The position numbers and the translations under genes were made by a program. From NCBI GenBank assembly GCA_964592745.1, contig CAZQFL010000008.1, positions 747-64,746 on the forward strand: a DNA stretch of 64,000 nt, written 5' to 3'. This document shows positions 7,129 through 15,149 of the stretch, one piece after another (within the stretch, counting starts at the first letter, position 1; the number at the start of each line of letters is the position of its first letter). The notes beneath the pieces are model-generated. The model ran no database searches. It was not told where the DNA came from and saw only the letters and a program-made list of their open reading frames with translations. The stretch comes from an uncultured Desulfurococcaceae archaeon. GTDB taxonomy: Archaea > Thermoproteota > Thermoprotei_A > Sulfolobales > NBVN01.

Positions 7129-9078
7129 TTGTATAAAATATTAGGTAGGGAATGCACTAAGAATCGATGCGGTAAATATATAGTAGAATTTAGTATCCCA
7201 TGGCCTAGGAACGCCAAAACAGTGCATCTATTAATGGACTTAAGCTCCTGGATGCCGGGACTATTTCCCTTAACTAAAATAGGTAGTAGAGGCTACATTA
7301 GATTAAAGTTATGGGAAGGTGTATACCTGTATGCATTCATGGTTAACTTAAATGAATTGATAGTGGACCCTGAGAATGACTTCTTTATAAAGGGCTTAAA
7401 GGTGCATTACCTTAATAAAACAGTTGATGCATCAATAGCTAGAGTAGGTGTTGATGAGATAGTTGAAGTCCTTATGAAGAGTAAGGATGTGAATGAACTT
7501 ATAGCTCATATTGAACATGATCAAGTATATGTTAGTAAGCTAGGTAATTACTGGAATGTAAGGATAAGATTACCCAGGGATTTTGTACAAAATGTTTATC
7601 TCGATTACAGATGTGGTGTAAGGAACGGCGTTATAGAAATGGAGAAAGTTCATAGTGATGATATCTTTGATTATTATGAGTGCCTTATTTTATGTAATGA
7701 TAATTTAAGCTATAGATTTAGGTTAGTACTCAAGAGTAAGCGTAGAACAGTATACTATGGCTATGAAGGCATAGATAATATGGAATATTTAAATTTAAGA
7801 ATTAATGAAGTAAATCCTTTAATTAATAACGAATTACTCGGTAATGTAGTTCTGGAAGTGAGTCTAGAGGATATCATGGATAGGTGTGATGATGTGATTA
7901 GTTCATTAAAGTATCTCTTCATAGATCACGTATTCGTAAGGTTACCCCCAGTAACTATAGTAAAACCTGAAGAGATGATTAAGGTAAATAACGGTATAGC
8001 TCCTGACATAGTGGATAGTATAGAATTATTTATACAGAAAGGGTATAAAGTACTCATTGAGATTCCATTAACTTATGTGTCACCATGCTTTAACGGATTC
8101 ATAGACGTAATTGAGAGAGGGGTTGAGTCGAAATATTGGGATTGGTTCTTAATATTTGATGAGAGTTTAGGTAAGGGCTTAAGTAGCGGTAAAGTCACGC
8201 ATAGTATTAAGGGTTCATGCTACATGGTGTATGAGATATTGAAGGAGTTAGCTAACTTCAATAGTGTAGCATTTGAGGATAGAGCAACATCGTTGCTTAG
8301 ACTAAATGTGGAGTCACCTAGAGTGTTAAGAGTTATTGAGGAAACAGTAAAGTTCTGGACTAAATTAGGTGTTACTGGATTAGTTATTAAGAGGTGCTTC
8401 ACAATACCTCAACACTTGATAAATGCCATAGTTACAACTGCTAAGGATATTAATCCTAATATAATGATATTTGGTGAGTCATTAGGCAATCCCTATTACC
8501 TTGCCAATGAGACTTTGCTTGATGGTATAATTGATAACTATTTAGGTAATTCAATAGCATCACTAATAACAGGTACATTAACATGTAGAGAATTTTGTAG
8601 AATAGTATCACATAACTATATACTTAAGCCTTTCATCAAAAACATAACAACATATCCGACATTACCGAAGGAAGTAGGATGCGGTGTTTTAGATGAAACA
8701 GAAATGAAATTACTGTACTTACTAACTACATCGCTTACAGGTATTATCCCGATAAGATTTACTGACATAATTAGTTGTGGTAAGAAGTTTAGGAAGTATA
8801 TACGTTCGTTAGTGAAGTTAACTAAGACTCTAGATGTAATGAGACTTGGTAGAGTAACCGTAAAATGTATTAATAAGAACGTGTTAATAGTTAAACGCGC
8901 ATTACTTAATGAGGTAGTTCATATATTATTAAACTTAAGTAGGGTTAGAGTAAATATTAATTTAAACATGTTACATATAAGACATAGTAAATCCTGCAGA
9001 AATCTCATTGACATGAGTAAAGTTAAGGGTACGGTGAAATTAAATCCTAAGTCAGGAGCTATAATTAAGGACTTATAA
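7129..9078 (+). CDS. Alpha-amylase-family-like protein with N-terminal E-set/CBM48-like domain; catalytic motifs look degenerate
   Basis: The N-terminus (VEFSIPWPRNAKTVHLLMDLSSWMP...YIRLKLWEGVYLYAFMVNLNELIVDPEN) resembles glycogen-binding E-set/CBM48 modules. The later segments KVLIEIPLTYVS, GVTGLVIKRC and IMIFGESLG sit where GH13 regions I-III would be, but they lack the Asp nucleophile. Confidence 0.45.
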   Translation: MYKILGRECTKNRCGKYIVEFSIPWPRNAKTVHLLMDLSSWMPGLFPLTKIGSRGYIRLKLWEGVYLYAFMVNLNELIVDPENDFFIKGLKVHYLNKTVDASIARVGVDEIVEVLMKSKDVNELIAHIEHDQVYVSKLGNYWNVRIRLPRDFVQNVYLDYRCGVRNGVIEMEKVHSDDIFDYYECLILCNDNLSYRFRLVLKSKRRTVYYGYEGIDNMEYLNLRINEVNPLINNELLGNVVLEVSLEDIMDRCDDVISSLKYLFIDHVFVRLPPVTIVKPEEMIKVNNGIAPDIVDSIELFIQKGYKVLIEIPLTYVSPCFNGFIDVIERGVESKYWDWFLIFDESLGKGLSSGKVTHSIKGSCYMVYEILKELANFNSVAFEDRATSLLRLNVESPRVLRVIEETVKFWTKLGVTGLVIKRCFTIPQHLINAIVTTAKDINPNIMIFGESLGNPYYLANETLLDGIIDNYLGNSIASLITGTLTCREFCRIVSHNYILKPFIKNITTYPTLPKEVGCGVLDETEMKLLYLLTTSLTGIIPIRFTDIISCGKKFRKYIRSLVKLTKTLDVMRLGRVTVKCINKNVLIVKRALLNEVVHILLNLSRVRVNINLNMLHIRHSKSCRNLIDMSKVKGTVKLNPKSGAIIKDL

Positions 9079-9089
9079 GTATGGTGATC

Positions 9090-9794
9090 TTACTCTCTTT
9101 TAATTAATTTAATTACGTTGATGAGGTGTCGTATATGTGGTATTATGTGTATTGAATCACCTATGCTTATAGGTTTTTCAACCCTGTCACTTATTAATAC
9201 AGCCTTAAAGCCAACACTTAAAGCCCCACCTAGGTCCTCAGAGATACCGTCACCAACATGTATTACTTCCTCAGGTTCAACACTTAGTACTTTACATATT
9301 ATTAGAAACGCCTTACTATCAGGCTTTTGAACACCTACTTCATCAGCGTAGAATTGAGCATCAAAATACTTACTTATTCCTACACTTTCTAGTAATTTCC
9401 TAGTGTATGTACTTGGCCAGAAGAGTACATTACCTAATATGACAGTTCTTAGTCCTAACTTCTTAATATATTTAAGTATGGTAGGAACATCTTCAATGAG
9501 TACTTCATTTGTCTTTAGGAGTAGGAATGACTTAGTTATTAAATTCGTCAATACTTCTTCCTTTAACCCTAGGTATTCAGCCATGAGGGATCTAGATCTC
9601 TCAACAACTTCACTCGCTTTCACTTTACCTAATCTTCTTAATTTCTTGGCTTCTTTATATGCCTTAAGTATTTTATTCAGTGCTTCCTCTTTACTCATAC
9701 TTGAGACAGTGCCCACTAACTCAGCTAATCTTACGTATACCCTATCTAGTCGTAACAGTGTATTCCACACATCAAATGATACAACCTTAACCAA
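9090..9794 (-). CDS. HAD-superfamily hydrolase (haloacid-dehalogenase-like subfamily)
   Basis: Motif I VVSFDVWNTLL, where the second Asp is replaced as in the DxYGT type. Motif IV is VGDGISEDLGGA. Confidence 0.8.
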   Translation of the reverse strand: MVKVVSFDVWNTLLRLDRVYVRLAELVGTVSSMSKEEALNKILKAYKEAKKLRRLGKVKASEVVERSRSLMAEYLGLKEEVLTNLITKSFLLLKTNEVLIEDVPTILKYIKKLGLRTVILGNVLFWPSTYTRKLLESVGISKYFDAQFYADEVGVQKPDSKAFLIICKVLSVEPEEVIHVGDGISEDLGGALSVGFKAVLISDRVEKPISIGDSIHIIPHIRHLINVIKLIKRE

Positions 9795-10998: not shown

Positions 10999-11436
10999 AT
11001 GAGTGGAAGTAGGATGTATTCAGGAATTAATAACGTTAAGGATATTGTGGAGTACTTAGTACTTAGGAGACTAATTAGTGACATAACCACAGTACTTCTC
11101 CTTAAAGAGTACTTTGTAGATGGTAACTCACCTAGCGATATCTCGAGGAAGTATAGCATTTCAGCACATACAGTTAGAGGCTACGTTGAGAGATTAATAG
11201 AGAAGGCTGGTTCACCACATATAATACCGGGTATAATAAAGAGAGTACTACCTTACATTATGAACATCGAACCATTAATAATAATAGTCAGTGGTAAATA
11301 TTATTGCCTTGAATGCGAGATAACCCTGTCCAATAAGCAGGCAGCAATAAATCATATTAAGAGACGTCACAGAGATAAACTCAATAGAATAGTGAATGAG
11401 GTTTTAACAAAGATAAAACAACAAAGTAGATACTAG
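10999..11436 (+). CDS. Putative DNA-binding protein: HTH + classical C2H2 zinc finger
   Basis: HTH-like segment SPSDISRKYSISAHTVRGYVERL. The C-terminal YYCLECEITLSNKQAAINHIKRRH fits C-x2-C-x12-H-x4-H exactly. Confidence 0.6.
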   Translation: MSGSRMYSGINNVKDIVEYLVLRRLISDITTVLLLKEYFVDGNSPSDISRKYSISAHTVRGYVERLIEKAGSPHIIPGIIKRVLPYIMNIEPLIIIVSGKYYCLECEITLSNKQAAINHIKRRHRDKLNRIVNEVLTKIKQQSRY

Positions 11437-11650: not shown

Positions 11651-12205
11651 ATGATTATATTTGAAAGGGATTTACTCAATGATTTAGCCTTAGACTATTT
11701 AAGCAGGTACATAAGTAGAAGTACAGGTTTAAATGGTTTTATAAGGATTAAGTCGAGAAATATTCTCCTAGCTAAGGAGTTAAGGAGACTATCAATCACT
11801 ATTCCCATAGTAATTATTTATATCAGTATGTTATCAAGCATGTCAAGAAGCGATAATAAGGCAATAGACATTATGGTAATACCAGATATCTCCTCAGCTA
11901 CGAAATTACTTAAGGTACTTAATCACTCACTTAATACTGATCATTACCTCAATATGTTATTATCGTCGTTAAGAGAGTTAGGCAAAATGTTTCTTAACGC
12001 CATTACATCAGCTTTAGTGACCACTAAGAGAGTTAGAGTCCTACACGCATCGCTTAAAACCCTTATTACAGATGATGATGAAATATTAAGAGTTTTGCTG
12101 AGATCAAAAGTACATAGTAAATATGTTGATAAATATAAATTAGAATTCTGTTCCGAGAATGGCGAGTCTGTTATCAAATTCACGATATTACTTTTTAATA
12201 ATTAG
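11651..12205 (+). CDS. Hypothetical protein
   Basis: 184-aa ORF with one internal hydrophobic stretch (LSITIPIVIIYISMLSS). No recognisable domain. Confidence 0.4.
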   Translation: MIIFERDLLNDLALDYLSRYISRSTGLNGFIRIKSRNILLAKELRRLSITIPIVIIYISMLSSMSRSDNKAIDIMVIPDISSATKLLKVLNHSLNTDHYLNMLLSSLRELGKMFLNAITSALVTTKRVRVLHASLKTLITDDDEILRVLLRSKVHSKYVDKYKLEFCSENGESVIKFTILLFNN

Positions 12206-12308
12206 CTACAGTAAATCTCAAGATTAAACGTTAGGTATGTGTCTTCGTGATTTCGACAGTTAGTCGTTAATTTAACCATTACTTTTTCTAACTCCTTACT
12301 ATGATACT

Positions 12309-13130
12309 ATGGAGAAGGTGATGAGATGGAGATGTGAATGCCCTATATGTAAGATAGTTGTACATCCCATTTTAAAAGCTATAATTCGTACTAAGGAGGT
12401 TAAGAATGTTGAAGAAGGTGGCAATAAAGGTACTGAGATAATAACTACTAGGAAAGAAGCTGAACAAATCGATAAGTACGAAGGCATAGATTTAGGTAAG
12501 GTATCACGAACACCTCACGCAACCAGTACTGGTGCGGCAATAGATGTAGCTACACAATTACCAACTAATGTAGTAGCTGCTACCGAGATTGAGAGTATAG
12601 GTGGCTCATCCAGGGAGGAAGAACAGAAACAAGAAGGTGAGAAGGTAAGTAAAACTGAGGTTAAGATACCTTCAGAAATCTTAGATAAGATTAAATTACT
12701 TGAAGATGAGTTAGCTAAGGTAAGAGACTACGTAAATGCAAACATAAATGACATTAAGTCAGCACTTATAGAGATAAAATCCTCCATAGAGGAACTTAGT
12801 ACCCCATTTACAATGAAGAAAGAAGTAAAAGATAGGAGTATTAAGCATATTGATGAAGGGTTAAGGAGTGAGAGTGTAAGTTTAGATCTAAAATCATTGA
12901 GGGATATAACCTTATGGCTGAATAAGGTCTTAAGCATGGTGGGACTAAGCAAGCTGAAGAAACTCATAGATAGCTATGTTGAGGCAGGGATACTGAATGA
13001 GACTTTAGGTAATGCTTTAAGAAGTATGGCCTTAGTTGTTGACAGCTTAAGGAATGAGAACGTAAGACCTGAAGTTCAAGCTCAAATAATAACCGAGCTA
13101 TTAACTTTAATTAAGCGCGGGAAGGTGTAG
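12309..13130 (+). CDS. FlaD/E (ArlD/E)-like coiled-coil protein
   Basis: N-terminal CxCxxC, an acidic low-complexity linker and a coiled coil (KLLEDELAKVRDYVNANINDIKSALIEIKSSIEEL). The C-terminal ITLWLNKVLSMVGLSKLKKLIDSYVEAGILNETLGNAL resembles the conserved FlaD/E C-terminal domain pattern (W-L-x-F-L...G...Y...GWIS). Its stop is 2 nt before the FlaH-like gene. Confidence 0.5.
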   Translation: MEKVMRWRCECPICKIVVHPILKAIIRTKEVKNVEEGGNKGTEIITTRKEAEQIDKYEGIDLGKVSRTPHATSTGAAIDVATQLPTNVVAATEIESIGGSSREEEQKQEGEKVSKTEVKIPSEILDKIKLLEDELAKVRDYVNANINDIKSALIEIKSSIEELSTPFTMKKEVKDRSIKHIDEGLRSESVSLDLKSLRDITLWLNKVLSMVGLSKLKKLIDSYVEAGILNETLGNALRSMALVVDSLRNENVRPEVQAQIITELLTLIKRGKV

Positions 13131-13132
13131 GT

Positions 13133-13867
13133 GTGTCTCACATGTCGTTAAGTAGGCAAGGCGAAAGAGTTGTTGTACCAACAGGTAATGAGGAACTCGA
13201 TATGAGACTAGGGGGTGGTATTCCATACCCGTCACTATTAATTATAGAAGGTGATCATGGATCAGGAAAGACAGTACTTTCTCAGCAGATAATCTATGGT
13301 GCACTTAAGTCAGGCTTTAGAGTTACGTACTTAACCACCGAACTAGGTGTTAAGGAGTTCATAATTCAGAGTATGAGGGTAAGTCTCGATGTTAGTAAAG
13401 AATTTTTAAAGGGGTTTCTCAAAGTCATTCCGCTACATGTAGAAAGCATCAACTGGGACTCAATAACCTCTGAATACCTGCTTAAAACTATTAGCGATTA
13501 CATGGTTAAGAACTTAGAAACTTACGACATATTCGTTGTAGATTCATTAAGTGTATTAATTATTAATTTAAGTTTAAGCTCTCTACTGAATTTCTTAACG
13601 AAAACCAGAACGTTAGTAAAGCATGGTAAGCTAATAATACTAACATTGCATCCTAACGTAGTACCTGAAGATGTCATAGTTAAGATTAGAGCTATCAGTG
13701 ATGGCTACATAAAGCTAGGTTTTGCTGAGATAGGTGGTAAGTTAATAAAGGTTATGAAGATAGTTAAACTTCGTGGAGCTATCTCAGCTCCAGACGCTAG
13801 TATAGCATTTGATGTCGACCCAGCATTTGGTGTAAAGGTTGTCCCCTTAGCCTTAGCTAAAGCATAA
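13133..13867 (+). CDS. flaH: FlaH/ArlH-like KaiC/RecA-superfamily ATPase
   Basis: 244 aa with Walker A GDHGSGKT and Walker B DIFVVDSLS. The N-terminus VPTGNEELDMRLGGGIPYPSLLIIEG is typical of single-domain KaiC-like FlaH. GTG start preceded by GGTGTAGGTG. Confidence 0.75.
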   Translation: MSHMSLSRQGERVVVPTGNEELDMRLGGGIPYPSLLIIEGDHGSGKTVLSQQIIYGALKSGFRVTYLTTELGVKEFIIQSMRVSLDVSKEFLKGFLKVIPLHVESINWDSITSEYLLKTISDYMVKNLETYDIFVVDSLSVLIINLSLSSLLNFLTKTRTLVKHGKLIILTLHPNVVPEDVIVKIRAISDGYIKLGFAEIGGKLIKVMKIVKLRGAISAPDASIAFDVDPAFGVKVVPLALAKA

Positions 13868-13880
13868 AGTAATTACATAA

Positions 13881-15149
13881 CTAATACAAATCTAGTGGAT
13901 TAACTAATTTAACATTAACTATTTCACCTGCCTCATAGCCCTCAACATCAGGTGGTATTACCACTACTCCATTACCTCTTATCAATGTAGATAGCACTCC
14001 TGACCCAGTAATCCTTAAAGGTTCAGCACATACTTCATTGCCGCATTTAAATACCTTAACCCTGGCATACGAAGTATAACCTGTAACGTTTACTAACCTC
14101 CTCACAAGTTTAGCCTTAATGTGTGGCTCCTCCATTTCCTTTATATTAAGGACCTTCTTTATGGTGGGAATGAAAATTAAGTCTAATGCTGCAAGAGCTG
14201 CTACTGGAAAACCTGATAGTACGAATACAGGTTTCCCATCAATTATTACAGCACTTGCTGGACGTCCAGGCCTTATAGCTACACCCCTAAATACTAATTT
14301 TGAGTTAGGAAGTGTTGTTAAGGTTTTTACAACTAAATCCTTCCTTCCAATACCGCTACCACCGACAGTTATAATTATATCGTGATTAATTGTTAAGTCA
14401 GATATTACGGACCTTATTTTAGCTTCATCATCAGGTAAAGGCTCAACCCTTGTTACGGAGACATACTTACGATTTCTTAGGTAAGATGATATTAAGTAGG
14501 ATGTACCTTCATATATCTTACCCGGTAATGGCGGTTTAGGTTCTTCTGGCTCTATTAACTCAGAACCTATGGGTATTACTGCTATCCTTAACTTTCTAAA
14601 GACTTTAATGCGGGAAAAGCCGTAAGAGGCTAGTGCTGCTATATGCCACGCCTGTATGACTTCACCCTTACTAAGTATCTTTTGTGACGCCTCGAAGTCC
14701 TCACCTATTCTCGCTACATTAGCCCATTTAGCTACAGGTTTATAAACCAAGATTCTATCATTACTAATTTTCTCTGTATCTTCATACATGATTACTGCAT
14801 TAGCTCCCTTAGGTAAAGGTGCCCCTGTAGAGATCTCAACTGCTGTAAAGGGCTCTAACTCTGGTAAATTCTCAGGACTTGAGCCTATATCTATTGAGCC
14901 TATGACTCTTAACTCTATGGGATTAGTATGTGACGCACCGTACGTATCCTCTGCTCTAACAGCATAACCATCAACAACGGACTTATTAAAATAGGGTAAA
15001 CTGTAGGGTGCATATATGTCATTAGAAGATATAAGCCCTAAAGCATCATCAAGCTTGACATTGACAACATCCAAACTTAACCTTATATTACTCTTTAATC
15101 TTTCTATAGCTTCATCAACACTCACGAGCTCCTTTAAGAACTCCCCCAT
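13881..15149 (-). CDS. moeA: Molybdopterin molybdenum/tungsten transferase MoeA
   Basis: 422 aa with MoeA signatures SVVDGYAVRAEDTYGAS, ISTGAPLPKGANAVIMYED and TVGGSGIGRKD. Confidence 0.9.
   Translation of the reverse strand: MGEFLKELVSVDEAIERLKSNIRLSLDVVNVKLDDALGLISSNDIYAPYSLPYFNKSVVDGYAVRAEDTYGASHTNPIELRVIGSIDIGSSPENLPELEPFTAVEISTGAPLPKGANAVIMYEDTEKISNDRILVYKPVAKWANVARIGEDFEASQKILSKGEVIQAWHIAALASYGFSRIKVFRKLRIAVIPIGSELIEPEEPKPPLPGKIYEGTSYLISSYLRNRKYVSVTRVEPLPDDEAKIRSVISDLTINHDIIITVGGSGIGRKDLVVKTLTTLPNSKLVFRGVAIRPGRPASAVIIDGKPVFVLSGFPVAALAALDLIFIPTIKKVLNIKEMEEPHIKAKLVRRLVNVTGYTSYARVKVFKCGNEVCAEPLRITGSGVLSTLIRGNGVVVIPPDVEGYEAGEIVNVKLVNPLDLY

Follow-up and report, generated by a model that had tools for sequence, protein, structure and literature searches.

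Why two genes of archaellum type should stand side by side, with no archaellum around them, is the question raised by a 64,000-nucleotide (nt) stretch of the genome of an uncultured Desulfurococcaceae archaeon (contig CAZQFL010000008.1), referred to here as the window. The two genes encode X', a putative scaffold protein, and ArlH', an ATPase, and an open reading frame (ORF) for a CheC-like protein lies directly upstream. A preliminary description, made from the sequence alone, had seen in the pair either a relic of a lost archaellum locus or a repurposed switch. The reading preferred here, to which a probability of roughly 60% is given, is that this module is a diverged and dispensable archaellum scaffold/regulator acting on an ArlI encoded elsewhere; the figure covers jointly the versions in which the pair is a paralogue and in which it is the sole copy. 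The features concerned are as follows (aa, amino acids).

12321..13130, + strand: X', 269 aa, a predicted cytoplasmic member of the Desulfurococcales type within the ArlX/ArlCDE superfamily.
13142..13867, + strand: ArlH' (FlaH), a 241-aa single-domain KaiC/RecA-like ATP-binding protein.
11651..12205, + strand: CheC-like protein, 184 aa, a remote homologue with a degenerate phosphatase motif.

ArlH' scored 287.1 bits against the NCBIfam model PRK06067 (FlaH; cutoff 194), which bears out the FlaH/ArlH assignment proposed earlier, and 207.8 bits, slightly under the cutoff of 215, against the ArlH equivalog NF052589, while the Pfam KaiC domain covers residues 15-238 (E 2e-19). As judged by its sequence, the ATPase of the pair is a true ArlH/FlaH. 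K46 lies in the Walker A motif GDHGSGKT, T68-T69-E70 follow, and D137-S138 form a RecA-type Walker B; in the alignment their spacing equals that of K33, T55/T56/E57 and D122 of SaArlH, where K33, T55/T56, E57 and D122 have been tied to ATP binding and autophosphorylation (bioRxiv 10.1101/2021.03.19.436134). As the alignment shows, ArlH' retains the residues that would serve both activities. Like the ArlH proteins of arCOG04148, PRK06067 and NF052589, for example that of Sulfolobus acidocaldarius, ArlH' has one KaiC/RecA-like domain of ~240 aa with Walker A, a TTE motif with the catalytic glutamate and the Walker B D-S, and it is encoded right behind a scaffold gene. Unlike a typical ArlH, it adjoins neither arlI nor arlJ, forms a long branch, has a changed HMEGVRW loop and falls below the NF052589 cutoff. 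It is 52-60% identical to the ArlH proteins of the clade, which are themselves 57-88% identical to each other, and it is altered at sites invariant elsewhere, the HMEGVRW loop being one example.

The partner gene was less readily placed. Direct searches of Pfam and NCBIfam with X' returned only coiled-coil noise (Pfam E up to 1) and no match to ArlX or Arch_fla_DE. Its profile found only GCN4/adhesin coiled coils and one designed protein in the PDB, a Foldseek search of the PDB with its AlphaFold2 (AF2) model gave no match at E ≤ 1e-3, and PADLOC found no defence-system match. Direct family matches were absent and close homologues very few, and X' was identified from the gene surroundings of the closest homologues of ArlH'. 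In two related loci (L005 and L008), an unannotated protein of 350-396 aa heads the series X-ArlG/F-ArlH-ArlI, which is followed by archaellins and ArlJ, and X' aligns with X proteins of this type over three modules (family alignments A1, A2 and A7). The first is an N-terminal W-x-C-x-C-P-x-C knuckle, present in X' as W-C-x-C-P-x-C-x4-H plus a helix; the second is a central helix, strongly conserved and terminating in NPF; and the third is a C-terminal helical domain (WLNK...LIDSYV.AG.L...). In X', an acidic linker lies between the N-terminal knuckle/helix and the long central helix. The AF2 model has helices at 12-35, 122-167 and 194-270, and confidence is high for the central helix and for the bundle of three helices at the C-terminus (C-terminal predicted local distance difference test, pLDDT, > 90). 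X' has no transmembrane (TM) segment, its 19-residue Kyte-Doolittle maximum being 1.15 (threshold 1.6; the TM-bearing relative P0216 reaches 2.21).

X' is a short member of the family, without the NILRKYAD motif and without the second P/Q-rich linker. The motif is nearly invariant in the alignment of long X proteins (A2) and is also missing from short-form X proteins of other lineages, and the X' terminus, ELLTLIKRGKV, resembles the family terminal ELLxLIxxG. Long X proteins (e.g. L008 6418-7470 and L023 10001-11290) have a variable spacer, missing in X', and then a nearly invariant acidic ELLxLIxGG end, which we take to resemble, loosely, the CheY-binding peptides of bacterial switch proteins.

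Links from this family to established scaffold proteins come through remote relatives. Against the ArlX profile (PF24151/NF058591) the best X-family member scored 18.9 bits (cutoff 28.7), the weak matches falling on the central helix, and against Arch_fla_DE (PF04659) the L006 X protein scored 14 bits at the homologous C-terminal domain (gathering cutoff 21). An exhaustive search with the X-family profile gave 144 matches; among the 100 scanned with Pfam, 16 carry ArlX (best E 5e-9) and 16 carry Arch_fla_DE. In P0216, P0221 and P0255 (profile E 4e-24, 6e-22 and 6e-10), Arch_fla_DE scores 27-31 bits where the family profile aligns, and P0142 carries a precomputed Arch_fla_DE match. Because the remote matches carry both domains, the X family appears to connect ArlX, through the helix, with FlaD/E, through the C-terminal domain. 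This is consistent with the derivation of FlaX as a diverged FlaC/D/E (Makarova et al. 2016, PMC4858521), and the contrast between FlaX and FlaC/D/E drawn in the preliminary description is a false dichotomy, given that the family links to both and that FlaX had already been suggested to be a divergent form of FlaC/D/E. The FlaD/E-like C-terminal domain proposed there holds by way of intermediate sequences, in which Arch_fla_DE is above threshold at the aligned position, but not by any direct Pfam match of the window protein.

X proteins share with ArlX/FlaX (PF24151, NF058591), the crenarchaeal scaffold ring, the slot upstream of arlG/F/H and a long coiled-coil-like central helix, and by analogy the binding of ArlX to ArlH would hold for X'. 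Unlike ArlX, X' lacks an N-terminal TM helix, having a Cys knuckle and amphipathic helix instead, and it gives no ArlX match. With ArlC/D/E (PF04659; FlaC_arch PF05377), the euryarchaeal switch from CheF/CheY to the motor, X' has in common that it is predicted to be soluble, with a C-terminal helical domain that is putatively homologous through intermediates, and the position of the gene is similar too, as the X gene stands directly behind the che operon in relatives and a CheC-like gene adjoins X' in the window. Unlike ArlC/D/E, X' has a fused architecture with a Cys knuckle, occurs in Crenarchaeota (Desulfurococcales), has no direct Pfam match and, in the window, lies far from any che gene proper.

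The CheC-like ORF gave a full-length match (E 6.6e-6) to a CheC hidden Markov model (HMM) built from the che operons of relatives. Its family (alignment A4) matched the CheC family (A5) in hhalign with a probability of 91.9% (E 7e-7, 153 columns), A5 being identified as CheC by its match to Thermotoga maritima CheC (PDB 1xkr, E 5e-16). No direct match to the ORF was found in Pfam (CheC and CheX included) or the PDB, and as Pfam alone finds nothing, its identity as CheC stays at the level of remote homology; the AF2 single-sequence model (mean pLDDT 38) was unusable. The active site, invariantly D-x3-E-x2-N-x22-P in CheC of the lineage (general motif D/S-x3-E-x2-N-x22-P), is broken: S-SLR-E-LG-K is found in the window (N->K) and E-LLR-N-LG-G in the related locus L001 (E->N, N->G). 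The ORF is syntenic in L001 and in a second relative, L002. Set beside the CheC/CheX/FliY phosphatases and the FliM middle domain, the product aligns full length with CheC of the lineage and, like FliM, is without the catalytic residues; unlike CheC, it has the catalytic Asn replaced (K in the window, G in L001), no CheD or CheY nearby and no Pfam or PDB match. A third gene probably belongs to the module: this ORF, which immediately precedes the pair and encodes a distant CheC relative whose active site is disrupted.

Whether these are functional genes is the next question. The features described from the sequence are all present, namely two + strand ORFs separated by 2 nt (12309..13130, 273 aa; 13133..13867, 244 aa), a convergent moeA (13881..15149) as the next gene, and, within the pair, the N-terminal CxCxxC, the Walker A (GDHGSGKT) and Walker B (IFVVDS) motifs and the C-terminal sequence cited in that description. 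The start of X' had been set 12 nt too early at 12309: this ATG is not kept in L001, whereas ATG 12321 (MRWRCECP...) and the preceding GGAGAAGGTG are, giving the 269 aa also found in public gene calls (P0001). ArlH' probably starts at ATG 13142 (241 aa, as called in the databases), with GGTG 8 nt upstream, GTG 13133 being an alternative start. One further feature precedes X'.

12262..12320, + strand: non-coding block before X', conserved in the alignment of the window, L002 and L001.

The block contains, in order, AGTCGTTAATT, CCATTACTTTTTCTAAC (TATA-like, 30-40 nt before ATG 12321) and the Shine-Dalgarno (SD)-like GGAGAAGGTG, and from this composition we infer that it may provide the module with a promoter and ribosome-binding site of its own.

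X' and ArlH' are genuine genes rather than ORFs arisen by chance, since they are syntenic and intact in L001, with ratios of nonsynonymous to synonymous substitution (dN/dS) of 0.15 and 0.08, respectively (window versus syntenic L001, dS > 1.5; neighbouring genes 0.03-0.18). The pair is under purifying selection in the window lineage, and between X' and its L001 counterpart the folded modules are 69-84% identical and the linkers 31-33%. At similar divergence depth, identity is 94% for ArlH and 69% for X in the canonical che-linked copies and 79% and 59% in the window type; the window-type pair evolves ~3 times faster than the canonical copies and is under weaker constraint. In L002 (10001-11560), a 93% nucleotide-identical relative from a Guaymas-type metagenome (JGI 3300005265), the module is pseudogenised while all flanking genes are intact: X' carries a -1 frameshift, and ArlH' carries T47A in Walker A, a stop at Q52 (CAG->TAG) and a -1 frameshift. 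The module is thus functional, as the selection on it shows, yet dispensable, since this close relative has lost it.

The same observations bear on the suggestion that the genes no longer have a function and are what is left of a che-arl locus lost or in decay, intact only by chance. The loss of both genes in a relative at 93% nucleotide identity, the ~3-fold faster evolution and the destruction of the CheC active site, with CheD and CheR absent, would all fit decay, but long neutral drift cannot account for a dN/dS of 0.08-0.15 when dS between the window and L001 is saturated. Moreover, the ArlH catalytic motifs are all intact, conservation in X' is concentrated in the folded modules, and the promoter-like and SD-like sequences are conserved; this explanation is improbable. 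The label of relic given in the preliminary description suits L002, where both genes are broken, but not the window lineage, where selection is purifying.

If the genes are maintained, the remaining question is what they serve. Profile HMMs built from relatives for FlaI, FlaJ, archaellins, FlaG/F and eight che or che-linked proteins (CheA, CheB, CheC/X, CheD, CheR, CheW, CheY and a ParA/MinD-like ATPase) found nothing in the 64-kb window beyond the pair except the weak CheC-like match at 11651..12205, in agreement with the earlier statement that it holds no further archaellum gene. The window holds no PilB/VirB11-type ATPase, which makes a link to a type IV pilus locus unlikely.

In relatives, the pairing of the two genes is conserved; its absence would, by the preliminary description, have counted against a module. 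Full clusters of the form che-X-ArlG/F-ArlH-ArlI(-archaellins-ArlJ) were found in L005, L008, L011, L012, L015, L017, L020-22, L029, L030 and L037, where the X gene is directly upstream of arlG/arlF/arlH; in the window it is upstream of arlH only. X-ArlH pairs without ArlG/F or ArlI stand behind a che operon in L014, L019 and L023-28, and others not behind one are found in L006, L013, the window and L001. The sub-module separated from arlI is thus seen in at least 5 other lineages, and since such separation is common it is by itself no sign of archaellum loss. Nor is the pair an undescribed system, as had been proposed, but the ArlX-slot and ArlH sub-module of Desulfurococcales arl clusters. 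The window trio is a reduced, diverged variant of the Desulfurococcales che-arl arrangement.

That the archaellum was lost and the trio kept as a stand-alone KaiC-like switch, dependent on ATP and phosphorylation and with a non-archaellum target, is unlikely. The 64 kb hold no archaellum or che gene and no canonical locus was found in the representative genomes scanned, purifying selection persists over dS > 1.5, ArlH' has its long branch and changed HMEGVRW loop, and X' has lost NILRKYAD (although short X proteins elsewhere lack it too), all of which favour such a switch. However, the literature describes ArlH as dedicated to the archaellum (PMC4858521), X-ArlH pairs often lie apart from arlI in relatives that possess arlI, the module has no conserved neighbour that could be a new partner and no type IV pilus ATPase nearby, and the module has been inactivated in the close relative L002. 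Rather improbable, too, is the related proposal of a self-contained derivative of the archaellum switch, kept after or alongside the motor as a KaiC-type signalling device driven by ATP and autophosphorylation with a non-motility output. The usual view of ArlH is of a component that serves the archaellum alone and stays in its operon, with a role that is still unclear; if this proposal were true the trio would be the first case of ArlH acting outside the archaellum.

Under the preferred reading, in which the module acts on an ArlI encoded elsewhere, it would be either a second copy or the only one. The housekeeping proteins of the window cluster at 90% or more with the metagenome-assembled genome (MAG) of Desulfurococcales archaeon ex4484_42, which also holds a che-X-ArlH locus (P0135; L024, from a metagenome shared with L002). 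The presence in ex4484_42 of window-like housekeeping genes together with that locus favours the window pair being a second copy. There are no housekeeping genes common to the window and the che-X-ArlH contigs.

The version in which the genome has no ArlX-type scaffold or ArlH besides X' and ArlH', and these serve an otherwise normal, non-chemotactic archaellum with arlG/F-arlI-arlJ-archaellin genes elsewhere, is a sub-case of the preferred reading and can be entertained only tentatively. Loci without X and ArlH but with ArlJ, an archaellin-like gene and ArlG/F-ArlI occur (L035, L036 and L038), FlaH-less ArlG/F-ArlI-ArlJ loci being found in window-like metagenomic populations (tetranucleotide frequency, TNF, 0.895); short X forms are known in other Desulfurococcales, and no canonical che-X-ArlH locus was seen in representative genomes. 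But the FlaH-less loci co-occur with che-X-ArlH loci that already supply X and ArlH (L036 shares its metagenome with L025, and L035 with L028), an essential single copy should neither evolve 3 times faster nor vanish in a near relative, and the ex4484_42 MAG holds the canonical pair too. As to the possibility considered beforehand, that the ATPase is simply a flaH displaced from an archaellum locus, ArlG/F-ArlI-ArlJ loci without FlaH do exist, but none is assigned to the window's genome. In the split clusters (L036 6286-12379, L038 5718-11807 and L035 74-2721), ArlJ and the archaellin-like gene lie on one strand and ArlG/F, then ArlI, on the other.

Several results weigh against an archaellum module working with an ArlI at a distance. 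No ArlI, ArlJ, archaellin or ArlG/F is assigned to the window's genome, of which 64 kb were searched, and the CheC-like ORF is 16% identical to CheC, a remote homology only. In the neighbour-joining tree, ArlH' and the L001 copy form a long separate branch outside the clade of the presumed hosts, a position that would fit an early or rapidly evolving paralogue but also horizontal transfer or long-branch attraction. By tetranucleotide signature the lineages cannot be told apart: L013, from a different, sister lineage, correlates at 0.965 with the window. No L023-like che-X-ArlH locus was found in a scan of species-representative genomes; the motifs used, NPFNILRK and IKATLVDLR, are absent from X', so that the scan is blind to X'-ArlH' but would match a long-form X if the genome were included. 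Because of this last result, the ex4484_42 bin could be a mixture of two related populations. A FlaI scan of metagenomes yielded no locus from 3300005265, from which both L002 and L024 come. ArlH' nests in the clade of the L023-type ArlH in only 4% of bootstraps, so that it is unlikely to have arisen from that type by recent tandem or segmental duplication.

Beyond the homology of all three genes, their synteny and the purifying selection on them, a mechanism can be proposed for the archaellum scaffold/regulator, modelled on Sulfolobus ArlX/ArlH and Haloferax ArlCDE/ArlH. The locus would derive from the che-proximal end of the Desulfurococcaceae supercluster (...CheC-CheD-CheR-X-[ArlG/F]-ArlH-ArlI...), of which an inactive CheC-like protein, X' and ArlH' are left. 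The central helix would drive oligomerisation of X' into a cytoplasmic scaffold and, as X' lacks a TM helix, the Cys knuckle and amphipathic N-terminus are proposed to hold this scaffold at the motor. The FlaD/E-like C-terminal domain of X' would hold ArlH', which, when ATP-bound and unphosphorylated, would dock on the ArlI hexamer encoded elsewhere and gate assembly or rotation. The CheC-like protein is predicted to be unable to dephosphorylate CheY-P and may be a structural adaptor only. The module would then be a second paralogue that works independently of che, or else the one copy to survive the loss of chemotaxis. A diverged scaffold-ArlH pair with a FliM-like dead CheC, selected apart from arlI, constitutes a natural experiment on the contacts that ArlH and its scaffold need.

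The context of the X family in the related loci, which lies outside the window, is more surprising than the window trio. Reviews describe ArlX as a TM-anchored scaffold found only in Crenarchaeota, from which ArlCDE and chemotaxis are said to be absent (PMC8978795, PMC10117864). The X family in the ArlX slot is soluble, has a Cys knuckle and bridges ArlX and ArlD/E, and in many MAGs its gene stands directly behind a full che operon; this che-linked family bears on the textbook claim of Crenarchaeota without ArlCDE and chemotaxis, and is a candidate route for CheY signals to the crenarchaeal motor. This context is partly anticipated by a passing remark on che genes in two species of Desulfurococcales (PMC5556600). 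Complete che operons (CheW, a MinD/ParA-like ATPase, CheY, CheB, CheA, CheW, CheC, CheD and CheR) were found directly upstream of X in many Desulfurococcales MAGs, including Staphylothermus sp. (L008 1-6296, L010 781-9861, L014 3-8304, L015 232-8103, L019 174-9484, L020 472-9559 and L023 876-9973). In L012, from a lineage with a full arl cluster, short CheA-like and CheD-like fragments upstream of X (8033-8224 and 9320-9499, both on the - strand) look like what is left of a che operon that has degraded.

The remaining gene of note in the window lies upstream of the CheC-like ORF.

10999..11436, + strand: small putative regulator, 145 aa, with a weak helix-turn-helix and C2H2 zinc finger.

Its Pfam matches, GerE (E 3.7e-4) and zf-C2H2_jaz (E 0.003), are both under cutoff. 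The protein is a highly conserved neighbour of the module, being 94% identical in L001 (dN/dS 0.03), and a homologue adjoins the L005 arl cluster (L005 9765-10172, - strand). It may be a regulator, and its membership in the module is uncertain.

Three other observations concern the arl loci of relatives. A 451-aa double-domain KaiC-like ATPase is encoded beside the archaellin genes of the full cluster in L005 (8160-9515, - strand). Directly behind ArlH in three X-ArlH-only loci (L006 8868-9458, L014 11940-12548 and L016 2541-2918) lies a gene for an unannotated protein of ~200 aa with no Pfam match; L006 and L016 belong to one MAG, ex4484_217_1, and L014 to a separate lineage. Finally, ArlI of several lineages contains a large intein directly behind a conserved ...IRGAEGNVAFQAMQ motif, so that the protein has 898-1055 aa as against ~590 aa when intein-free (L008 8786-11938, L011 12852-15548, L012 12266-15070, L020 12046-15207, L036 9212-12379 and L038 8667-11807).

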